Source: Squalus acanthias
Lineage: Eukaryota
Assembly (NCBI GenBank): GCA_030390025.1
Contig: CM059437.1
Span: 73,160,001 to 73,224,000, forward strand
Direction of reading: 5' to 3'
DNA: 64,000 nt
Both the position numbers and the translations under genes were made by a program. The notes beneath the pieces were generated by a model, which saw nothing but the letters and a program-made list of their open reading frames with translations, searched no databases and was not told the DNA's origin. Of this stretch, positions 5,651 through 64,000 are shown in pieces; the first letter of the stretch is position 1; the number at the start of each line of letters is the position of its first letter.

Positions 5651-6167
5651 TAGAAACATAGAACATAGAAAAATAGTTGCAGGAGTCGGCCATTCGGCTC
5701 TCGAGCCTGCTCCGCCATTCAATATGATCATGGCTGATCCTCTATCTCAATACCATATTCCCGCTCTCTCCCCATACCCCTTGACGCCTTTTGTGTCTAG
5801 AAATCTATCTATCTCCTTCTTAAATATATTCAGTGACTTGGCCTCCACAGCCTTCTGTGGTAGAGAATTCCACAGGTTCACCACCCTCTGAGTGAAGAAA
5901 TTTCTCCTCGTCTCAGTCCTAAATGTCCTACCCCGTATCCTGAGACTGTGACCCCTCGTTCTCGACCCCCCAGCCAGGGAAAACATCCTCCCTGCATCCA
6001 ATCTGTCTAGCCCTGTCAGAATTTTATACGTTTCAATGAGATCCCCTCTCATTCTTCTAAACTCTAGTGAATACAGGCCTAGTCGACCCAATCTCTCCTC
6101 ATACGACAGTCCTGCCATCCCAGGAATCAGTCTGGTGAACCTTCGCTGCACTCCCTCTGTGGCAAGT
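5651..6167 (-). mobile_element. CR1-type (HER1-like) LINE, 5'-truncated
   Basis: ORF 5747..6151 QRRFTRLIPGMAGLSYEERL...FFTQRVVNLWNSLP; (TTCTATGT)n tail; many CpGs retained, so relatively young. Confidence 0.92.
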
Positions 6168-6526
6168 AGTCAAGTAATGTAAATTGCACCTGGACGATGC
6201 CTTTTAAAGGGGGGAAAAAAAAGGTAGCATACAAGACTATATATGATAAGCATTAGTTTAGTTAGTGACAACTGTATTGTCAATGGTTATTACGGTGTCA
6301 CCGATGGTGCGGCCGGCTTCCTTGTCAACAGTTACTCCGTTAATTTATTACTAATCCATATTTGAGCTGTTTTCATAACATTGGTGAGTGGTTCAGGGTT
6401 GCCTTTATTATATAGGGCATTGTTGGCACTAACCCTATCTCCATTAAGTAAGTTTTAAAAAAGTGAAGTTTACTGCACTAATTTAAAAAAAAAAGTTTGA
6501 AAAGAATACTTTTTACCTTTTGTCAG

Positions 6527-26718: not shown

Positions 26719-27663
26719 GTGGCCACAGTATCTGAGAAGTCTCGGATTATGGATCTAGAAAGGGATCTTGTGTCACGCACGAAGGAGGTCTCGGAGCTTC
26801 GACATAGACTCATGAGCACTGAAGGTTCAGGTGGTATGGACAGTGCCTCACCTCTATTGGAAGAAATCAACTGTATGCGAGATAAGCTTGCAGCAATGAG
26901 CAAAGAACATCAAAATGAACTTAATACATTGAAAGAAAAACTTGAAACCTCAGAAAAAGCCCACCAAAAGGTACTTCAACAACTGCAAGCTGCCAGTGAA
27001 AAAATATCCAAGGAGAATGAGACTCTTAAATCCAAATTGGATCAAGCCAATATTGAAAACTTGGAGGTTATTAGTCTATGGAAATGTAAGCTGGAGTCTG
27101 CAATTGAATCTCATCAGCAAGCCATGGAAGAACTCAAGTTATCTTTCAGTAAAGGAGCAGGTCCCCAAACTACAGAGCTTCTTGAGCTGAAGAGTACCTT
27201 TGAAAAACTTAAAGCTGAGCATCAAATGGAACTTGAGAATATCAAAATTAAGCAAGATTTCGAAAAGTCAGCCTACGTAAAAGAGACTGAAGATCTAAAA
27301 TCTCGGCTATTAGCAGTCACTGCGGAGAAGGAGAAAGATATAGAAATTCTGAAGTCTCAACTGGAATCTGCTACAAATCAACACCTGGTAGAGATGGAAG
27401 AGACCTTGACAAAGCTACAGGACACTAAACTGAAGGTAAAGGAACTGCAAGTGTTGCAGGCTAAGAGCAATGAACAGGCACAAATTGTAGAGGCCCTAAC
27501 AGCTAAAGTGACAGCAGCTGAACAGAAGGTGATGGGATATGAATTGCTGCAAGAAGTTGAGGCACAAGGTAAAGAGGAAATCAAAAGACTTGAAGAGAAG
27601 CTTGTGGCCATTGAGTCACAAATGAAAATCAGTGAAACTTTAAAACTTTCTGAAGGTAGCAAG
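26719..27663 (+). CDS. CLIP1: CLIP1 large coiled-coil exon (945 nt, phase 0-0)
   Basis: ctatag|GTGGCC...AGCAAG|gtttgt; VATVSEKSRIMDLERDL...HQQAMEELKLSFSKG...QHLVEMEETLTKLQ...SEGSK; matches ORF 26719..27738 minus the intronic run-on. Confidence 0.97.
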
Positions 27664-35127: not shown

Positions 35128-35343
35128 CAAAGGCAGGTGGAGATGCACGGCGCACACAATAAGGAGCTGCAAAGCAGTCATGAGAAAGTCCTTTCCGAAA
35201 TAAATGCTAACAATGGTACTCTAGTGAAAGAGCTCAAGCAGGACCTACAGGAAACCAAGCAAACACTAAAGAGCTCTCAGGAGAAGAATAAAGAAAGGGA
35301 AAAACTGGTGGAAGAACTGAAGAAGCAAGTGGAACAGGTCCAG
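35128..35343 (+). CDS. CLIP1: CLIP1 exon (216 nt, phase 0-0)
   Basis: ccacag|CAAAGG...GTCCAG|gtattc; QRQVEMHGAHNKELQSSHEK...LVEELKKQVEQVQ. Confidence 0.92.
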
Positions 35344-35610
35344 GTATTCTTGCAACTATTAAATTTGGGTGGTTTGTACACAATATTGCATTTTTGAAGT
35401 CTGTATGTTTTGCAATGAAATGGCGTCTAACCATTTACTTTGCAATGCGGAGAGCCCAGAGGTTGTTGGAGAACTCCTATATGATGTAATTTATTGTCTA
35501 CTTGTCTGCATCCAAGATGTTCCTGGGCTCTTTATTTTAAAAAGAAAATCAGTTTTAGTTTAAATTTTGTGGTTTATTTTCTGATTTGAGACCATGCCTA
35601 TAGAATGATC

Positions 35611-36437
35611 CATAAGAACATAAGAAATAGGAGCAGGAGTAGGCCGTTTGGCCCCTCGAGTCTGCTCCGCCATTTAATGAGATCATGGCTGATCTGATTT
35701 TGGGCTCAGCTCCACTTCCTTGCCCGCTCCCCATAACCCTTCACTTCCTTATTGTTCAAAAATCTGTCTATCTCCACCTTAAATGTATTTAATGACCCAG
35801 CCTCCACAGCTCTCTCGGGCAGAGAATTCCACAGATTTACAACCCTCAGAAGAAATTCCTTCTCATCTTTGTTTTAAATGGGAGACCCCTTATTCTGAAA
35901 CTATGCCCCCTGGTTCTAGATTCCCCCATGAGGGGAAACATCTTCTCTGCATCTACCTTGCCGATCCCCCTCAGATCATCTCATTCTTCTAAACTCCAAT
36001 GAGTATAGGCGCAACCTTTCTTCATAAGTCAACCCCTTCATCTCAGGAATCAACCTCGTGAACCTTCTCTGAACTGCCTCCAATGCAAGTATATCCCTCC
36101 TTAAATAAGGAAACCAAAACTGTACGCAGTACTCCCGGTGTGGTCTCACCAATACCCTGTACAGTTGTAGCAAGACTTCCCTGCTTTTATATTCCAACCC
36201 CCTTGCAATAAAGGCCAACATTCCATTTGCCTTCCTGATTACTTGCTGTACCTGCATGCTAACTTTTTGTGTTTCATGCACAAGGACCCCCAGGCCCCTC
36301 TGTACTGCAGCATTTTGTAATCTCTCTCTCTCTTTAAAAAATAATTTGCTTTTTTATTTTTCTTACCAAAGTGGATAACCTCACACTTTCCCACATTATA
36401 CTCCATCTGCTAAATGTTTGCCCACTCACTTAGCCTG
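35611..36437 (-). mobile_element. CR1-type LINE, 5'-truncated
   Basis: ORF 35976..36281 QVQQVIRKANGMLAFIARGLEYKSREVLLQLYRVLVRPH...; (TTCTTATG)n tail. Confidence 0.92.
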
Positions 36438-37455
36438 TGCTTTCATGATATATATTTACTTGCTGTATCTTAGACAAAAATGGTTCTGTTTGGGTAGTAA
36501 ATGGTAAATATACACGGAATTAATCCTGTATTGCACATTTGGCTTTTTGAGGCAACTTCTATTGCACATTCTACACTTATGATTAAATGGCTTGTGAATC
36601 AGCAGCAAATTACTAATATGCAGTAGGCAACCTTGTATCCTACACGAGTTAATAGTTGATAATAGAACTACTTGCTCATGCACTACTATAGCAGTGTCTG
36701 GAGTTCAATAATTCTCTTAAAAGAACTGATTTTTAACTACATTCTCAGTACTTAAATGCTATATTCAGTGAATAAATGCTCACACCATTTGAGACTCGTG
36801 GACAAGATGAATTCTTAGGGTTAGAATAAATGTAGCAAAGCACAGCTAATAAAGGCTGGTGGCAAATATCTGTGATCTGCTCAGTCTTGCCTCTCCCAAA
36901 TATGCATATTATCTAACATGAATTTGATTTGTTAGGAAATATAGTACATGTTTTATTTATCTTTCATGACAGGAATAGTAGATGCTACATAAGAATAGCT
37001 TTTTTTGCTGTTACTTTGTTTAATATGCTAATTTATGCAAATTTTTATTTTAGAGAAACTTGCATTTGTAGCAGCAATAGTAAGACAATTCTTATTAGTT
37101 GGCTGTTCATCTGCACCCTGTAGATTTATTTCTTGCTCTCGTTTTCCATTCATCATGTTTTATAATAATCCTTTGTTTGCTGTGCTCTTGCAGAATATTA
37201 GAAACACTTGTCATTTGGTACAAGAAAATCTTCGGGTTCCTCAGCTGATTTATCAGGAACAAATTCACGTTCCTTTTTTTGCAGAGCTGCCACTCTCCAT
37301 CATGGCTTTTGACATTATAACAATTTGAAGAGGCACAAATTTAGATAGGCCTGTAACGTTATAAATGCTTGCTTTGGAACACCTGTGTTCAAGAAGTAAA
37401 TTCAAATTATAGACTGATGCACTAGGTCATCATACCATATAGACTCATAGTCATT

Positions 37456-38804
37456 TGGTCATATTTTGCTGTGAGCGTCGAACGAATGACGACTTACACT
37501 TGCCCATAGATTTTTTTTTATGGGGTTTTGCACAGCAAGTTACTGTCAGCTAATCATCCAAACGGCACGGTGCCCTCTACAGAGCATCTGAGACCTGTGT
37601 GAACAGGGCAAGCAACAATGGGGGAGAAATTGGGTACCTTTGCGCCTCCCGTTATCGCCTCCGAAGGGTGATAACAGGGCACTTGCCACCCGGGCCCAGC
37701 AACAATATCGGCTCCCGCGAAATTGGGCGGGAGATTTGCGGCGGCGGTATGGCGTTGCGCCCCGATCTCCTTTGCCCGGAGACCATGACGTCATCGCCCC
37801 GGACACGAACTTCGGTTTCGCCCCCTGCAGCATCGCCGGGCGACAAGACCGGCAGCTGCAGGAGGCGTTCATCGGGAGGCTGGGCACTTCGGGGGTGATA
37901 AAGGCGAGGTGGCTGAGGTAGGGAAAAAAATAATCAAATGCTCGTTTTCTCTTTTTTTTTCCTTTTTTTCCCCCCCAGCGCTCGATCGGCCTGGCACTCT
38001 GCTGCAGTGCATCGGGCTGATCGGGCCGGATTGCGGCTGCCGTTGGGGACCAGGTAAGTCGCTTTCCCTTGCAGAGCCTGCAGCGATGGTCCTTCCCTTT
38101 AAGGGAGGGAAGGAGCCTTCCAACGTGGCAGCGCTGCACGGCCCATTGTGCAGCGCTGCACACCTACCGCCTGTTGCGCTCCAGGAAGTTTTTCAACTTT
38201 TAAAAGTTAGCGCCCAAACAGTGCTAAAATAAGTTTCTCCCCCTATGTATCTGCTTAACCAATCAGATTGAAGAATTGTTAATGAGTAGTGTCTGAACCA
38301 GGAAGTGTCAATTAGAATAGTGAATTTATTGTCAAATCAGATACAGAAAGCGAAATAAAGAGAGGGAAAGAAAGATTGGATTAAAAGGGAGAGATAAAAG
38401 ACAAACATTTAAAAAAAATAATTATTATTTCAATTTAAAAAAAAACTCCAACAATAATTAAAATCTGAAGGAATGAGACCCCACACTTGTTAAATTTCAT
38501 TTTTAGTACCAGAGAAGTTATTTGGCAGCAATTAAACTTATCACGCTGTTAAAAAGGCTACTTAGACTGGAATGAGTTGACTTAACTTTTTGTGGCGAGT
38601 TTAGTCTGTATCTATAATGTGTACAGGAACTTCACGCTGTTCAATACATTTGAATGGGGAGCCGGATGGCGAGATGCCGTTTTCGCGCAGCTTACGCGGA
38701 TTAACTGAGCATGTGCGCTCGCTGGAAGTTGCTGTCCAATCTGCATGTAAATGCCGGTGAACGCTGTTAGTCTCACCGTTATTTTCACAGCAAAATCCGG
38801 TCCA
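37456..38804. mobile_element. Outer non-autonomous DNA transposon (MITE-like)
   Basis: Imperfect TIRs: tggtcatattttgctgtga vs the reverse complement of tcacagcaaaatccggtcca. Confidence 0.6.
37620..38243. mobile_element. Inner CpG-rich MITE nested in the outer element
   Basis: TIRs gggggagaaa ... tttctccccc; abrupt GC/CpG-rich block in AT-rich intron; no credible ORF. Confidence 0.75.
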
Positions 38805-38832
38805 TTGGGCTTTATTTTCCTTTTCTGTATCA

Positions 38833-39195
38833 CCAACAACTTGCATTTATATAACATCTTTAAGCTGGAAAAACTTCACAAGGTGCTTCACAGAAGCATA
38901 ATCAGATAAAAATTGACATTGAGCCAATGAAGGAGATATTAGTCGAGATGACAAAAAGCTTGGTCAAAGAGTTGGGCTTCAAGAGGGTCTTAAAGGAGGA
39001 GAGGGAAGGTGGTGAAGCGGAGAGGTTTAGGAGGGAATTCCAGAGCTTGGGATCTAGACAGCTGAAGACATGGCTGCCAACAGTGGGTTGGAGGGAGTAC
39101 GGGAAGCACTAGAGGCCAGAGTTGGAGGAACACAGAGTTCTTAAGGTGTTGTTGGGCTGGAGGGGCGAGGCCATGAGGGATTTGAATATAAAGAT
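38833..39195 (-). mobile_element. L2 3' end
   Basis: caacaacttgcatttatata tail; aaaagcttggtcaaagag...gaggtttaggagggaattccagagct. Confidence 0.85.
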
Positions 39196-39931
39196 GAGGA
39201 AAAAGTGCTTCTGACCTGGCTTGTAAGTATGTTGTGAGGCAATGCTCCTTTTGATTTCTACTCCCTTTCTCCTGATTAAAAACTCCTTTTAAAGAGCAAT
39301 CAATCTTTGATTCAAGCAAGACTCCTTATCTATGGTGTAGTCAGTGCAGTGTCATGCTTAACACACTTCCCATCTTCCCTTCCATCTTTTTAAATAAGAA
39401 CACATTCTACACAGGCCAACATTTACAAATGGAGCTGTGATGTGTTAGAAATTGTGGGGTATTATACAACCTTTCCTAATAGATTGTACTCTGAGCATCT
39501 CAAAGGGCAGCAGAATTACTGTAAAATCTGAGATTGATCATTTGGTGTACCACATCTCAATTTTTTTATGCCAAGTAGAAAAACATTGCTGACACTGCAA
39601 AATAATTTGTGGCGTGAAGTGCTTTGAGACGTTTCGGAGAGAAGTGACAAGATGTTATATAAATGCTGTTCCCCTAGATTTTACAGTTCATAAAGAATGA
39701 TTGTTACACCAAACTTTATGGTAGATTTTTTAGTTTTACTGGAGCACTGTGATCTAGGTCAGCGCACTTTCATTCCTCCATAAATCTGCTGAGAAATCCA
39801 AGGACAGTTGTGTTTTTTTATTTTGTGCTTGAGCAGCACACTTTACCTTTTGTATTGTCTTTAATCCATGCTGTTTTCATTTGCCTGCTTGACTGTTTTT
39901 GTTTTCCTTTCTCCCCACTTAAATTCTGAAG

Positions 39932-42217
39932 TCTTTAACCAATGAGCTAGCATCAGCCAAATCTCAATATGAGCAAATAGCAGAGGATATAAGAGCTCTA
40001 AAGGGGGATAAAGAACAGATGATCCAGCAAGGAGATGCACTAAAATCCGAGAGAGAGTCCATATTCTCTGAACTTTCAGAGCTGAAGTTACAGTATATTT
40101 CCCTGCAGAAAGAGCAGCAAGTGTTAGAATCAAAGAATGAGGCACTCCAGTTGGAAAAGACAGCATTTTTAAAAGAAAGGCAAGATTTTGACTGTAATCA
40201 GCAACAACTTGGTCTGGAAAAGGATGCTTTAGCCACTGAGAAAGACCAGTTTCTCATGGAAATCAAACGGTTGCAGCAGCTACTTGATACGTTGACAAAA
40301 GAAAACGACGTCCTCCAAGTCTCACAATCCAATCTAAGTAAACTACTTGGAGAAGTTCAGATAAACAGCAAAGTAACAGAATGTGAACGAGCACAGCTGC
40401 TTCAAGAAAAGGAAGAGTTGTTGTCGGCCCACAGGAAAGTGATTACAGAAAGAGAGGAACTTACAAAAGAAAAAGACAAGATTACCGAAAATTTCCACAA
40501 GTCATGTGAAGAGACAGCAATTGCTCTTGAGAAGCTGATGAAAGAAAGAGACAGTCTGATGGTGGAAAAAGACTCTATTTTATTGAAATACTCAAAGCTT
40601 GAAGCTCAGGATGAACATTTAGCAAAGGAGAAAATTCTGCTGAAATCGGCAAGTGATGAGCTTGCATCTGAAAACGAAACTCTTGAGAAAGAGAAGGGAG
40701 ATCTTGGTTCACGTTTGCAGAAGACCATCTTTGAAAAGCAAACCATCATTATTGAAAGGGATCAACTACAGAATAATCATGATTTTTTGAAGGAAGAACT
40801 AGAAAAATATATGAAGGAAAATGCAGAACTTCAGGCCTCAAAATCCAGCCAGTCAAAACTCTTGGATGAGATTACGAATAGCAGGGAGGTAACAGACTCT
40901 GAACATGCCCAGCTGCTCCAAGAGAAGGAAGAGCTAACTACGTCTCAGAGAAAACTAACTGTAGAAAGGGATGAACTTGCTAAGGAAAAAATGGAGTTGA
41001 CTGCAAAGCTGCAGAAATCAATTGAGGAGGCAGCCATCATTGAGAAGAAGCTGAGTGAAGAAAAAGATGCTCTACAAACAGAGAAAGGCTCACTTTGGCT
41101 GAGGCAGTCACAGCTCGAAACCCATTGTGAATCTTTACAAAAGGACAAGGAGACCTTGGAATCAAAAAGCAATGTGCAGTTGTCAGAAAATGAATCTCTC
41201 TTAGACGAGATAGTCAAATTTAAATCAAAGCAACAGCAGGTAGTCTCTGAAAATACAGCCATAGCTGCAGAACGGGATCAGCTCCTTGGCAACGTTGAGT
41301 TCTTAAAGAAACAACTTGATAAATTGACCAAAGAAAATGGAGAGCTCCAGGTCTCAAAATCAAGTTTGTCTACACTTTTGGATGAGATTCAGAACAGCAA
41401 AAAGATTGTGGATTCAGAGAGACTTTGCTTGTTGCAGGAGAAGCAGAGACTGGCAGCTGAACTTCAGGAACAGTGCTCCGAAAAAGAAAATCTTATTACA
41501 CAGAGGGTGGAATTAGAGGAAAAATATAATAAATTGAGTGAACAGGTGAGAGTATTTGAAAACCAACTAATACAAGAAAGGGATGCAGCAAAAATGGGAA
41601 AAGAGACTCTCATTATGGCTCATTCAAAACTTGAAAGTCATTTCCAGCTATTGCAGAAAGAAATGGGTGTTCTTAAAGCTAAAAATGATGAACTACTTTC
41701 AGAAAAAAACTTGCTAGTAAAAGAGAAAGAGGTCATTGATGCTGAACAAAAGAAGTCTGCTAGTGAGAAAGAAGACCTAGCAGCTGAGACAAATTGGCTG
41801 ATGTCCAGTGTTGAAGAGCTGAAGAAGGAGCTTGATATATTAACCAAAGAAAAAGTAGAGCTCCAGGCTTCACAATCAAAACGTTCGAGACTCTTGGATG
41901 AACTTCGCAGTCGCCAGGAGGTGTCCGACTTGGATCGGGTAAAGCTATGGGAAGAGAAAGATAATTTACTGGCAACAGTACAGAAACTACATGCAGAAAA
42001 AGAAGAGCTTGTTAGAGGGAAGGACGGGCTAGCTGAATCCCTCTGCAGGTTACGTGAAGAGGCTGCTCTTTCTGCTCAAGACAAGGGAGAAACTGTAGCA
42101 AAGCTCCAGCAACTGGTATGTGAGAAGGAGCTTTTGCTGAAACATGAAGAGGACCTTGCTTCCAAATTAAAAGATCTTCAGGTTCATCAGAATATTACTT
42201 TATCAGAGAAGATTGAG
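39932..42217 (+). CDS. CLIP1: CLIP1 giant alternative coiled-coil exon (2286 nt, 762 aa, phase 0-0)
   Basis: Long pyrimidine tract then ctgaag|TCTTTAACC (SLTNELASAK), in frame with ORF 40019..42325; E/K/L-rich heptads with no Pro; best donor ATTGAG|gtacca at 42217, weaker in-frame CAG|gttcat at 42181. Confidence 0.85.
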
Positions 42218-42849
42218 GTACCAAATATAAGTGTTCAGATAAATCCAGAAAGTTATGGGCACTTTTGTTTACTAATGAGTGCACTAACCGGTTTGGTTTT
42301 GAACTTTTTTGATCAGCAGTATTAACAGTGTTTGTCAACTATGCTTTCGATTACATTAATTCTGGGAAATGATTTTTGTGGCTTGTCACTCCAATAAATG
42401 GTGTGGGCATTTTGCACGGGTAATTGTATTCATTATAAAAGTCCTGTTTCTCATTTTTCCTGAATTAATTTGCATTATATGCAGTTAGCATTCTTTGTTT
42501 CGAGGGTGTGGATAAAATGAAGGTTTAAGTTTGATGGATATGCTTTAAAACAGAAAAGGTTTAGATTTTTCTGTTCATTTTAGTCCTGTTCAAGTTTACC
42601 AAAAGGACTATTTTACATGTTCTCAAATTTAACAGATTGGTTATCCTCAACAAATCCTTTTCTTGGTTATTTAAAAAAAAAATTCATCCTGATTTTCTTG
42701 TCACAATTTTGTGTTTTAAACAGAATGCAATTATTTCTAAAATCTTAAAACTTCACACTTATCCACAGTGAAACTGCCAACAGCTAATTTCAACAAAGGC
42801 AAAACCGATTTGAAGCAATTAGGCAGAAATGTACAAGTGCAAACTATTG

Positions 42850-44060: not shown

Positions 44061-44198
44061 GCTTCAAAAAAAGCTGAAGAGGCTGGAAAGACATTAGAGC
44101 AGGTTATGAAGGAGAAAAATATACTGGACCAACAGAAGACTGAAACTTTAGTAGAATTGAAAGAGTCCAGGCTGAACAACCAGAAGCTTCAAAATGAG
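44061..44198 (+). CDS. CLIP1: CLIP1 exon (138 nt, phase 0-0)
   Basis: ttttag|GCTTCA...AATGAG|gtaaga; ASKKAEEAGKTLEQVMKEKNILDQQKTETLVELKESRLNNQKLQNE. Confidence 0.94.
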
Positions 44199-50794: not shown

Positions 50795-51755
50795 GGAGTC
50801 GTGCAGTGGGTGGTCTTTCACCTCTGGGATCAGTGTTCAAATGTAACCAAGAATGATGAGATGGAAGTTCTCTCTGCCTACAAGGTCCTATGTGAAATGA
50901 GTTTGGACATTCACAGTCCTGTTCCTAGTGGGTTGGGCCTAAAATTGTCAATTTGTTGCTACGGCAACGTCACATAGACATGTCTAATGATAGTTGATGT
51001 GAGAAGTGTAAAAAGTGCAAACTTATGTATTCGAGACTAAGACCGCCTATTTCCACCTCCGTAACATCGCCCGACTCCACCCCTGCCTCAGCTTATCTGC
51101 TGCTGAAACCCTCATCTATGCCTTTGTTACCTCTAGACTTGACTATTCCAACGCACTGCTGGCCGGCCTGCCTCGTTCTACCCTCCGTAAACTTGAGCTC
51201 ATCCAAAACTCTGCTGCCCGTGTCCTGACTCGCACCAAGTCCCGTTCACCCATCAGCCCTCTGCTCGTTGACCTACATTTGCTTGCGGTTAAGCAATGCC
51301 TAGATTTTAAAATTCTCATCCTTGTTTTCAAATCCCTTCATGGCCTCGCCCCTTTCTATCTCTATAATCTCCTCCCGCCCTACAACCCTCCGAGATATCT
51401 GCGCTCCTCCAATTCTGGCCTCTTGAACATCCCCCATTTTAATCGCTCCACCATTGGCAGCCGTGCCTTCAGTTGCCTCGGCCCTATCCTCTGGAATTCC
51501 CTCCCTAAACCCCTCTCTTTCTCCTATCTGTCCTAATATCTCCTTATGTAGCTCGGTGTCAAATTTTGCTTGATAGCGCGCCTTGGGACGCTAAAGGCGT
51601 TATATAAATACATTTTGTTGTCGTAGAGCAGTTGTGGTTGAAGCACATTGTTAGGGTGGAGTGGAAGGAGCTTTGCTCTTGCAGCGGCCTGTGTTATATC
51701 TCATCTGGGATTGCTTGATGCTGACATTAAGTGCCAGAAATGGAAAGTGTTCCGT
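50795..51755 (+). mobile_element. LF-SINE-like element split by an L2 insertion
   Basis: Blocks ctttcacctct..gttcaaat, cctatgtgaaatgagtt, cagtcctgttcctagtgg and ggttgaagcacattg occur in the order I recall for the LF-SINE consensus. Confidence 0.65.
51033..51622 (+). mobile_element. L2 LINE 3' fragment
   Basis: ORF 51015..51536 KTAYFHLRNIARL...AFVTSRLDYSNALLAGLP...QNSAARVLT; tail aaaggcgttatataaata. Confidence 0.92.
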
Positions 51756-54805: not shown

Positions 54806-56865
54806 AATAGCAAAATACTGCGGATGCTGGAAATCTGAAAGAATAACAGAAAATGCTGGAAACACTCAGCAGGCCAGGCAGCATCCGTGGAGAGAGAAAC
54901 AGAGTTAATGTTTCAGGTCTGTGACCCTTCGTCAGAACTGGTAAAAGTTAGGGATGTAACAGGTTTTAAGCAGGTGCAGAGGCAGGGAAAGGGGGGCAGA
55001 GGGGAGGAAGGAACTAAAGGGACGGTCTGTGCTAGGATTGAAGGCAGGAGAGATTAAATGTTACAAATGGGGATGGCAGAATTATCAACAGCTGCTGCCT
55101 AAAAAAATGGGGGGACTATAGTCTGAAATTGTTGAACTCAATGTTGAGTCCAGAAGGCTGTAAAGTGCCTAATAGTAAGATGAGGTGCTGTTCCTCGAGC
55201 TTACGTTGAGCTTCATTGGAACAGTGCAAGAGGCCAAGGACAGAGGTCAGAGTGGGAGTGGAGCGGAGAATTAAAGTGACAAGTGACTGGAAGCTCGGGG
55301 TCACCCTTACGGACTGAACGGAGGTGTTCCGCAAAGCGGTCATCCAATCTGCGTTTGATCTCCCCAATGTAGAGGAGACCGCATCGTGAGCAGCGAATAC
55401 CGTGTACTAAATTGCAAGAAGTACAAGTAAATCGCTGTTTCACCTAGAAGGGGTGTTTGGGGGCCCTGGACAGTGGGAAGGGAGGATGTAGAAGGGCAGG
55501 TGTTGCATCTCCTGAGCTTGCACGGGAAGGTGCCGTGGGGAGGGGAGGGGCTGTTGGGAAGGATTGAGGAGTGGACCAGGGTGTTGCGGAGGGAGTGGTC
55601 CCTTCGGAATGTTGAAAGGGGAGGGGAAGATGCGTTTAGTGGTGGGATCACGTTGGAGGTGGCGGAAATGGCGGAGGATGATCCGTTGAATGTGGATGCT
55701 GGTGGGGTGAAAGGTGAGAACAAGGGGAAGCCTATCGTGGTTCTGGGAGGGAGGGGAAGTGGTGAGAGCAGAAGTGCGGGAAATGGAACTGACACGGTCA
55801 AGGGCCATGCCAACCACGGTAGAGGGGAATCCTCGGTTGAGGAAAAAGGAAGATATGTCGGAAGCACTGGTATGGAAGGTGGCATCGTCAGAACAGATGC
55901 GACAGAGACACTGGGAGAATGGAATAGAATCCTTACAGGAAGCGGGGCGGGAGGAAGTGTAGTCCAGGTAGCTGTGGGGTATCAGTGGGCTTGTAGTGGA
56001 TATTTGTCGATAGCCGATTGCCAGAAATGGAGACGGGGAAGTCAAGGAAGGGAAGAGAAGAGTCGGAGATGGACCATGTGAAGGTGAGGGAAGGGTGGAA
56101 ATTGGAAGCAAAGTGAATGAAATTTTCTAGTTCAGGGCGAGAGCAGGAAATGGCACCAATACAGTCATCGATGTACCGGAAAAAGAGGTGAGGGAGAGGA
56201 CCTGAATAGGACTGGAACAAAGAATGCTCCACATATCCCACGAAAAGGCAAGCATAGCTAGGGCCCATGCGGGTTCCCATAGCAACACCTTTAATTTGGA
56301 GGAAGTGAGTGGAGTCAAAGGAGAAGTTGTTCACTGAGAACAAGTTCAGCCAGACGGAGGAGGGTGGTGGTGGATGGGGACAGGTTGGGCCTCTGTTCAA
56401 GGAAGAAGCAGAGCGCCCTCAGGCCGTCCTGGTGGGGGATGGAGGTGTAGAGGGATTGGACTTCCATAGTGAAAAGGAGATGGTTGGGGCCAGGAAACTG
56501 GAAACTGTTAAAGTGGTGGAGGGCATCGGAAGAGTTGCGGATGTAGGTGGGAAGAGACTGGACAAGGGGAGAAAAAATAGAGTCGAGATAGGAAGAAATC
56601 AGTTCCGTGGGGCAAGAACAGGCTGAAACGATGGGTCTACCAGGGCAGCCCTGTTTGTGGATCTTGAGAAGGAGGTAGAAGCGGGCTGTGCGGGATTTGG
56701 GGACTATGAGGTTGACAACCATGGAGGGAAGATCTCCAGAGGAGATGAGGTCAGTGACAGTCTTGGAAATGATTGCTTGATGTTTGGTGGTGGGGTCATA
56801 GTCCGGGGGGAGGTAGGAGGAGGTGTCAGAGAGTTGGCGTTCAGCCTCCGCACGGTAGAGGTCGG
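54806..56865 (-). mobile_element. Penelope-like retroelement, 5'-truncated and frameshifted (RT + GIY-YIG)
   Basis: KIHKQGCPGRPIVS, QIKGVAMGTRMGPSYA, FFRYIDDCIG (RT); NLVHGIRCSRCGLLYIGEIKRRLDDRFAEH (GIY-YIG); TSD ttattctc(t/a)cagac at 54792-54805 and 56866-56879. Confidence 0.93.
54903..54939 (-). ncRNA. Minimal type I hammerhead ribozyme motif in the Penelope terminal repeat
   Basis: Minus strand AGTT-CTGACGA-AGGGTC aca GACCT-GAAA-C-ATT-AACT. Confidence 0.75.
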
Positions 56866-57179
56866 TTATTCTCACAGACCCTGTTGCCTACATTAAATAG
56901 CAGCAATTTTTTTCTAAAACTATAGTATAGGTTTCTTCCCATGTTTATAATAAAGTCACTTTCTGTTGAATGAAATAAGATGTTGGTGTATTGCTGATAT
57001 TTAACCAGATTTGTTACTTTAAAGCTGTGAACGAATTAAATGTGTTTGAGAAACAAAGTTGTATTAGTACATGTATATTCTCTCTAAATGACTGCAGTAA
57101 GCACGGGGGTCTAGTGTTTAATTTATCTATTGCCACCAGTACACTCTCTTGTCGCCTTACAGTCATTCAAACTTAAATA

Positions 57180-63112: not shown

Positions 63113-64000
63113 AACTTTTTTTATATTCGTTTATGGGATCAGGGCATCGCTGGCAATGCCAGCATTTATTGCCCATCCCTAGTTGCCCTTGAGCCACCTT
63201 CTTGAATCGCTGCAGTCCATGTGGTGATGGTACTCCCACAGTGCTGTTCGGGAGGGAGTTCCAGGATTTTGACCCAGCGACGATGAAGGATGGGCGATAT
63301 ACTTCTAAGTCAGGATGGTGTGTGACTTGGAGGGGAACTTGGAGGTGGTGGTGTTCCCATGCGCCTGCTGCCCTTGTCCTTCTAGGTGGAAGAGGTTGCG
63401 GGTTTGGGAGGTGCTGCCGAAGAAGCCTTGGCGAGTTGCTGCAGTGCATCTTGTAGATGGTACACACTGCAACCATGGTACGCCGGTGGTGGAGGGAGTG
63501 AATGTTTAAAGTGGTGGATGGGGTGCCAATCAAGCGGGCTGCTTTGTCCTGGATGATGTCGAGCTTCTTGAGTGTTGTTGGAGCTACACTCATCCAGGCA
63601 AGTGGAGAATATTCCATCACACTCTTAATTTGTGCCTTGTAGATAGTGGAAAGGCTTTGGGGAGTCAGGAGGTGAGACACTCGCCACAGAATACCTAGCC
63701 TCTGACCTGCTCTTGTTGCCACAGTATTTATGTGGCTGGTCCAGTTAAGTTTCTGGTTAATGGTGACCCCCAGGATGTTGATAGTGGGGGATTCGGCGAT
63801 GGTAATGCCATTGAATGTCAAGGGGAGGTGTTTAGACTCTCGCTTGTTGGAGATAGTCATTGCCTGGCACTTCTGTGGCGCGAATGTTACCTGCCACTTA
63901 TCAGCCCAAGCCTGAACGTCGTCCAGGTCTTGTTGCTTGCAGGCATGGACTGCTTCATTATCTGTTGAGTTGCGAATGGCACTGAACACTGTGCAGTCAT
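63113..64000 (-). mobile_element. CR1/L2-group LINE ORF2 C-terminal part, continuing past the window end
   Basis: 292-aa open frame QQDLDDVQAWADKWQVTFAPQKCQ...IYKAQIKSVMEYSPLAW...SWNSLPNS; A-rich tail. Confidence 0.92.

Follow-up and report, generated by a model that had tools for sequence, protein, structure and literature searches.

The window, a stretch of 64,000 nucleotides from Squalus acanthias, carries the second CAP-Gly exon of CLIP1 followed by the rod exons of this gene, in the order seen in orthologous proteins. Among the rod exons is a giant cassette exon of 2,286 nt (39932..42217, + strand), identified by its frame, splice contigs, and orthologues. It is flanked upstream by a constitutive exon (35128..35343, +), which aligns to the residues preceding the insert in orthologues and has GT..AG joints in contigs of eight of eight runs, and downstream by another (44061..44198, +; end approximate) placed by contig joints and orthologue alignment. 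A sequence-only reading had described the giant exon as a 762-residue CLIP1 exon of phase 0-0. Translation verified this: 39932-42217 is an open frame of 762 codons without a stop, a pyrimidine-rich AG precedes it, GT follows it, and both phases are 0. The encoded segment has no proline and a net charge of -40. At the nucleotide level, the exon is 38.0% A, an adenosine bias above 33%, with purine-rich k-mers (top 5-mers, AGAAA, AAAGA, and GAAAA). A Pfam scan of the giant exon and one constitutive rod exon, with a family set lacking PF27241.1, returned 0 families.

Several other features of the locus were recorded. Another large rod exon, constitutive and about 315 codons long (26719-27663), is gap-free to snake and four mammals and as A-rich as the giant exon (37.7% A), yet it is not known as a cassette. 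The frame of the giant exon continues for 35 codons into the next intron (42218-42325) before a stop, and no use of this read-through was seen in contigs. In the intron preceding the giant exon, 35564-36586 and 37269-39314 are dense in high-copy repeats, with a summed contig depth of up to about 50,000. Intronic open frames of 125 to 295 codons at 5750-6169 (-), 35979-36353 (-), 51012-51533 (+), 55936-56887 (-), and 63114-63998 (-) are presumably LINE reverse-transcriptase pieces, which they resemble.

Splicing of the giant exon

Splicing was evaluated using assembled contigs from 8 of 22 listed runs, which were presumed to be RNA and selected for containing the exon. In the first set of four runs, both inclusion joints (35343>39932 and 42217>44061; GT..AG) were present in three, the fourth holding the exon only as low-depth pieces, and the skip joint 35343>44061 was present in all four. 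The second set also contained the skip joint in four of four runs. Inclusion joints were not among the joints listed for this set, each run of which had exon contigs ending at a splice site; in two runs a single contig spanned the whole exon and reached 28 and 30 letters past its ends, and two had an overhang at one end. The shorter side of the inclusion joints measures 28 to 30 letters, below the 31-letter bridging bar, and the skipping side measures 140 letters in run X8. In every run, contig depth, a poor measure, was lower for inclusion than for skipping (e.g., 16 versus 83 and 85 versus 476), and the contigs give no inclusion rate by tissue, the sample tissues being coded. All three joints are nevertheless present in public contigs, in agreement with the earlier claim that the exon is skippable: the giant exon is both included and skipped in presumed mRNA. 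At least nine variants from related runs fall in the exon (five silent, four missense, and no stops among those listed), which is too few for dN/dS.

The exon itself has already been published, a point that the sequence-only reading missed. In human and mouse, Ilik et al. (2024; PMC10901741) reported a 2,268-nt protein-coding giant cassette exon of CLIP1 that is expressed in spermiogenesis; in cells of both species, SAFB proteins bind this exon and repress it. In squirrel, an exon of 756 residues (2,268 nt) occupies the same position and aligns gap-free to the window exon, and in 13 of 15 proteins the insert is anchored by its flanking exons to one and the same site of the rod. The window exon is the orthologue of the human and mouse spermatid giant cassette. 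Like it, it is frame preserving, protein coding, and about 2.3 kb long (2,286 versus 2,268 nt), lies at the same position of the same gene, is A-rich (top k-mers in the published work, AAA, AGA, and GAA), and can be skipped. The accessible text of that paper treats the exon as a splicing target and mentions neither a 172-residue repeat and how old it is nor any conserved patch. Large exons of NIN, MAP4, ANK2/ANK3, and MPRIP, listed there beside CLIP1, are similarly long, A-rich, in frame, and tissue switched (for the ninein exon, see PMC6429586); no sequence kinship between these exons and that of CLIP1 emerged from the profile search described below.

Repeat units and the predicted rod

A KE motif recurs in the giant exon, with its glutamate codons at 40301, 40817, 41333, and 41849. 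The claimed spacing of 516 nt with no net indel was confirmed, and four units align without gaps, the core motif being largely present in each of them. Comparison of the protein with itself gave 172, 344, and 516 residues as the top lags (35.8, 32.1, and 28.5% identity; lag mean, 9.4%), which are the diagonals that had been expected, and the top nucleotide lags were 516, 1,032, and 1,548 nt (51, 48, and 46%). Adjacent units share 40.7% identity versus 19.6 ± 1.4% (maximum, 25%) in 5,000 heptad-preserving shuffles, corresponding to a z of 14.9. Unit alignment and hydrophobic phase place unit 1 at residues 27-198 (40010..40525, +), unit 2 at residues 199-370 (40526..41041, +; also by the dimer model described below), unit 3 at residues 371-542 (41042..41557, +), and unit 4 at residues 543-714 (41558..42073, +). 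Residues 27-714 therefore make up 4.0 units. The 26-residue N-terminal flank (39932..40009, +), which lies outside the repeat and is fairly well conserved across species, shares 1 of its 26 residues with the end of unit 1. The 48-residue C-terminal flank (42074..42217, +), out of unit register and six codons shorter in mammals, is identical to the unit starts at 3 to 6 of 48 positions. Because neither flank matches the unit, the count is four rather than the claimed 4.4 or so, a figure that merely reflects 762/172.

Within the unit, none of 17 heptad lags stood out (best lag, 77; z, 2.0). A search of the same genome with unit 2 found only the four units among the 150 of 1,565 candidates that were scored, and a search of solved structures with the unit profile gave three weak matches to unrelated zippers (E values of 0.0007 to 0.009). 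No published description of the repeat build of the CLIP1 giant exon was found in the openly accessible literature, and the assembly from four units, their age, the stutters, and the one conserved patch appear to be unpublished.

In the heptad pattern of the exon, Leu occupies 66% of d positions and Glu 47% of g positions, with mostly Lys, Leu, Arg, and Asn at a. Each 172-residue unit contains 49 hydrophobic periods of 3.51, that is, 24 heptads plus 4 residues. This is equivalent to the one stutter or hendecad per unit (23 x 7 + 11) proposed earlier, and the stutter falls at the unit junction. Between units 2 and 3, it lies at about residues 367-375 (41030..41056, +), where the hydrophobic phase shifts, as it does once per unit, and where the dimer model has a 3-4-4-3 contact step at residues 366-377.

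This dimer model, built from two copies of residues 199-400 (202 of 762 residues), is continuous, parallel, and in register. It scored 0.48 versus 0.17 for the best of three controls, with at least 98% contact agreement among runs and a pLDDT of at least 87. Among microbial structures, 21 of 30 solved pairs and none of 23 single chains attained the score mark; the eukaryotic figures were 17 of 29 and 0 of 30. A pass may stem from coiled coils memorized by the model. A single-chain AlphaFold model had low-confidence breaks at residues 210-257 and 417-479 and a pTM of 0.21, making it uninformative on topology; the dimer model is continuous across 210-257, the first of these breaks. Coiled-coil modeling, named as a check by the sequence-only reading, thus predicts that the giant exon forms a continuous parallel two-stranded coiled coil.

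With a coiled-coil rise of 0.1485 nm per residue, 762 residues compute to approximately 113 nm, close to the 110 nm of additional rod estimated before. Skipping of the exon yields the standard CLIP-170 protein, composed of a CAP-Gly head, a coiled-coil rod, and a zinc-knuckle tail, whereas inclusion adds about 760 residues to a rod of about 1,025 (squirrel values), extending its computed length from 152 to 264 nm. Other rods with long-range repeats are those of myosin and paramyosin, which have a 28-residue repeat with skip residues, and CENP-F, which has tandem repeats. The giant exon resembles them as a long coiled coil with a regular register break. Unlike myosin and paramyosin, it has no 28-residue or long charge periodicity.

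Age of the units and their spacing

A profile search of 1.84 billion representatives returned 156 matches at an E value of 0.001 or less, 29 of them at 1e-10. Of these, the strong ones are CLIP1 exons and the weak ones coiled coils of a generic, short-period type. Among P0044-P0099 (56 proteins inspected), none outside CLIP1 showed a 172-residue period; the periods of P0065, a CAP-Gly protein with an E value of 7e-12, are different. For none of the profile matches inspected could a jawless fish or an invertebrate be named as the source. In a separate search, 31 of 32 matches were named CLIP1 or clip1a, from bichir, teleosts, frogs, snake, bird, and mammals; the exon is conserved across jawed vertebrates, which the earlier reading had proposed to check. 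The Pfam family PF27241.1 is annotated on almost all full-length matches P0002-P0033 and on P0043, a protein that matches 27% of the exon, and it is absent from exon-only matches.

Some orthologues depart from the four-unit build. The frog proteins P0020, P0023, and P0046 contain a 158-residue internal duplication and thereby a fifth unit, which clusters with frog unit 2 (94/78) and lacks the patch. In the teleost or teleost-like proteins P0027-P0033 and P0054, units 3 and 4 have decayed, while the length of 744 to 804 residues and the unit 2 patch are kept. Annotated models of Peromyscus (P0024-P0026) stop within unit 3, and that of Saguinus (P0003) runs two residues past the splice site of the exon and then stops. 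These short models are either annotation or assembly artifacts or early-ending isoforms.

The four units of the window share 37 to 43% identity with one another, compared with 19 to 27% among the snake units and 21 to 25% among those of squirrel. Each matches its like-numbered counterpart best in both snake (four of four) and squirrel (four of four, narrowly for unit 4). In a tree of 37 units, which has an open base, units of like position grouped together (unit 3 starred), and a single clade of the four window units was rejected (p-AU, 0.003), which also rejects a recent homogenization of all four. As the units group by position and a clade of their own is rejected, four units existed before this lineage split from the tetrapods. 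Units 2 and 3, at least, are present in ray-finned fishes as well, and the units predate the bony-vertebrate radiation. The closeness of the window units is probably explained by slow change without recent duplication.

The spacing of the units has been retained to a large extent. After the CAP-Gly diagonal, 172 was the best diagonal in 14 of 17 species (exceptions being pika, swallow, and one frog), and spacing is 172-172-172 in snake, rabbit, squirrel, and most mammal-like matches. Together with the core motif kept in all four window units, this regularity would suit a ruler or periodic scaffold, in which a 25-nm unit matches the microtubule or another lattice or staggers neighboring CLIP-170 rods. 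However, spacings of 158, 162, 166 (pika), 169, and 171 also occur among orthologues. Free variation of unit length, which the sequence-only reading had said would speak against a ruler, was therefore half borne out, because unit length is strongly kept but not absolutely, as the frog duplication and the pika spacing illustrate. The exon comprises 762 residues in the window and snake and 756, 752, 750, 744, 882, 920, 912, 804, and four times 744 in the remaining proteins (13 of 15 could be anchored; two pipefish models without the upstream exon were dropped). Rabbit lost 4 residues, pika 6, and swallow 7, 3, 7, and 1; many indels are of 3, 4, or 7 residues, sizes that are absorbed by a coiled coil. 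Bichir and snailfish have an extra C-terminal part.

The constitutive 315-residue rod exon served as a control. It was gap-free in 5 of 11 orthologues and the giant exon in 8 of 19, at cross-species identities of 41 to 55% versus 25 to 35%. As the constitutive exon is just as gap-free, a low number of indels is a trait of the whole CLIP1 rod, which weakens the ruler. So does the geometry. Tubulin dimers are 8.2 nm long. With this value or the 8 nm given in PMC13373224, three dimers span 24 to 24.6 nm, compared with 25.5 nm per unit, and the mismatch grows to about half a dimer after three units; the proposed correspondence of one unit to three dimers is not supported. The exon is also acidic, it has no 56-residue sub-period (z, 0.66), and a 57-residue charge harmonic is not in the top 10. 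The whole-multiple length, repeated binding sites, and fixed length or copy number of a lattice ruler are not features of the giant exon. Given lengths of 744 to 920 residues, the frog duplication, the pika deletion, the equally gap-free constitutive exon, and a single conserved site, the length-tuned ruler is not supported, and we regard any ruler or scaffold role as very unlikely.

We infer instead that an ancestral fourfold duplication left the 172-residue period as a fossil; the period may have persisted because a dimeric coiled coil, here as elsewhere in the CLIP1 rod, has little room for indels. Still, 172 as the best diagonal in 14 of 17 species and a gap-free alignment of this genome, snake, and squirrel at 34 to 35% identity are more than a loose spacer needs. 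Register constraint alone may not account for the kept spacing in three distant lineages.

The unit 2 patch and the proposed role of the exon

Conservation within the exon is concentrated in a patch of unit 2, residues 301-342 (40832..40957, +). Mean pairwise identity among 12 orthologues was 0.54 for the patch versus 0.30 for the whole exon, and the equivalent positions of units 1, 3, and 4 had values of 0.22, 0.31, and 0.25. This is the single strong conservation peak (0.49 to 0.58 in three windows of the alignment; background, 0.22 to 0.37; N-terminal flank, 0.46), calculated after exclusion of the duplicated segment of one frog protein. The outer b and c positions of the patch reach 0.5 versus 0.2 elsewhere, and Arg and Thr are found at its core positions. 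The patch has persisted in teleosts, frogs, and mammals as well as in this genome. Units 1, 3, and 4 lost it in bony vertebrates, another point against a ruler, whereas this genome keeps much of the motif in all four units. Conservation at the surface of a rod that otherwise drifts most readily suggests a site for binding or regulation, and we consider these 42 partly surface-facing residues a candidate isoform-specific binding site. The patch could instead be a folding trigger or a phosphorylation site.

A role as a dynein activating adaptor was rejected. Such adaptors carry a CC1 box (AAxxG) and, downstream of it, a Spindly motif situated after a break in the coil (10.1101/2022.03.17.482250). 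No AAxxG box is kept upstream across species and no coil break was modeled before the motif; the patch does contain a five-letter Spindly-like match, which is no more than expected by chance, shuffled exons giving 1.5 to 3.0 such matches each.

If the patch alone were the job of the exon, recruiting an isoform-specific partner or regulator, the length of the insert would be incidental. The patch being the sole strong peak, its retention in teleosts, frogs, and mammals, and the absence of a clear repeat signal from units 3 and 4 of teleosts all point in this direction, but 13 of 13 anchored orthologues keep 744 to 920 residues, teleosts with decayed repeats included. Since a 42-residue site needs no such length, we find this explanation unlikely. 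The polar residues of the patch core bear on a further possibility. CLIP-170 is a rod of about 95 to 135 nm that folds head to tail and is inhibited when folded (PMC2172020); a longer rod with a polar core might alter this folding, so that the giant form stays open on stable microtubules, with the core Arg and Thr as a possible weak spot. In the dimer model, however, the coil runs unbroken through the patch, and a mainly regulatory role of this kind appears highly improbable.

With moderate confidence, we favor a splice-switched spacer of four units that lengthens the rod by about 110 nm and carries one candidate docking site in unit 2. In this mechanism, splicing would give the parallel two-stranded rod either of two lengths, about 1,025 or about 1,780 residues (squirrel values), the longer one through an in-frame insert of four tandem 172-residue units that would act as a spacer separating the microtubule-binding head from the zinc-knuckle tail. 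The reach from microtubule plus ends to tail partners, e.g., dynactin and LIS1, would be extended, head-to-tail autoinhibition may shift with rod length, and the added docking site would lie about 45 nm into the insert. A stronger form of the spacer makes the giant protein a 260-nm tether with a period kept by a real partner, the patch being the survivor of four docking sites (all still seen in this genome) through which giant rods bind a spermatid partner or, within the perinuclear ring of the manchette, pack at 25-nm offsets. CLIP170 does mark this ring (PMC13373224), and "clip1" had no match in three supplements of a manchette proteomics paper (PMC12326331); we think this form quite unlikely.

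The fourfold repeat is a real feature of a known exon and reveals no new system. The mammalian giant exon has so far been known only as a splicing event, and both the exon and its skipping are far older than mammals. As the window units are closest to one another, this genome is a good guide to the ancestral unit. The unit map, the stutters, and the patch provide clean cut points for separating the roles of length, spacing, and a single site in manchette function and sperm-head shaping.
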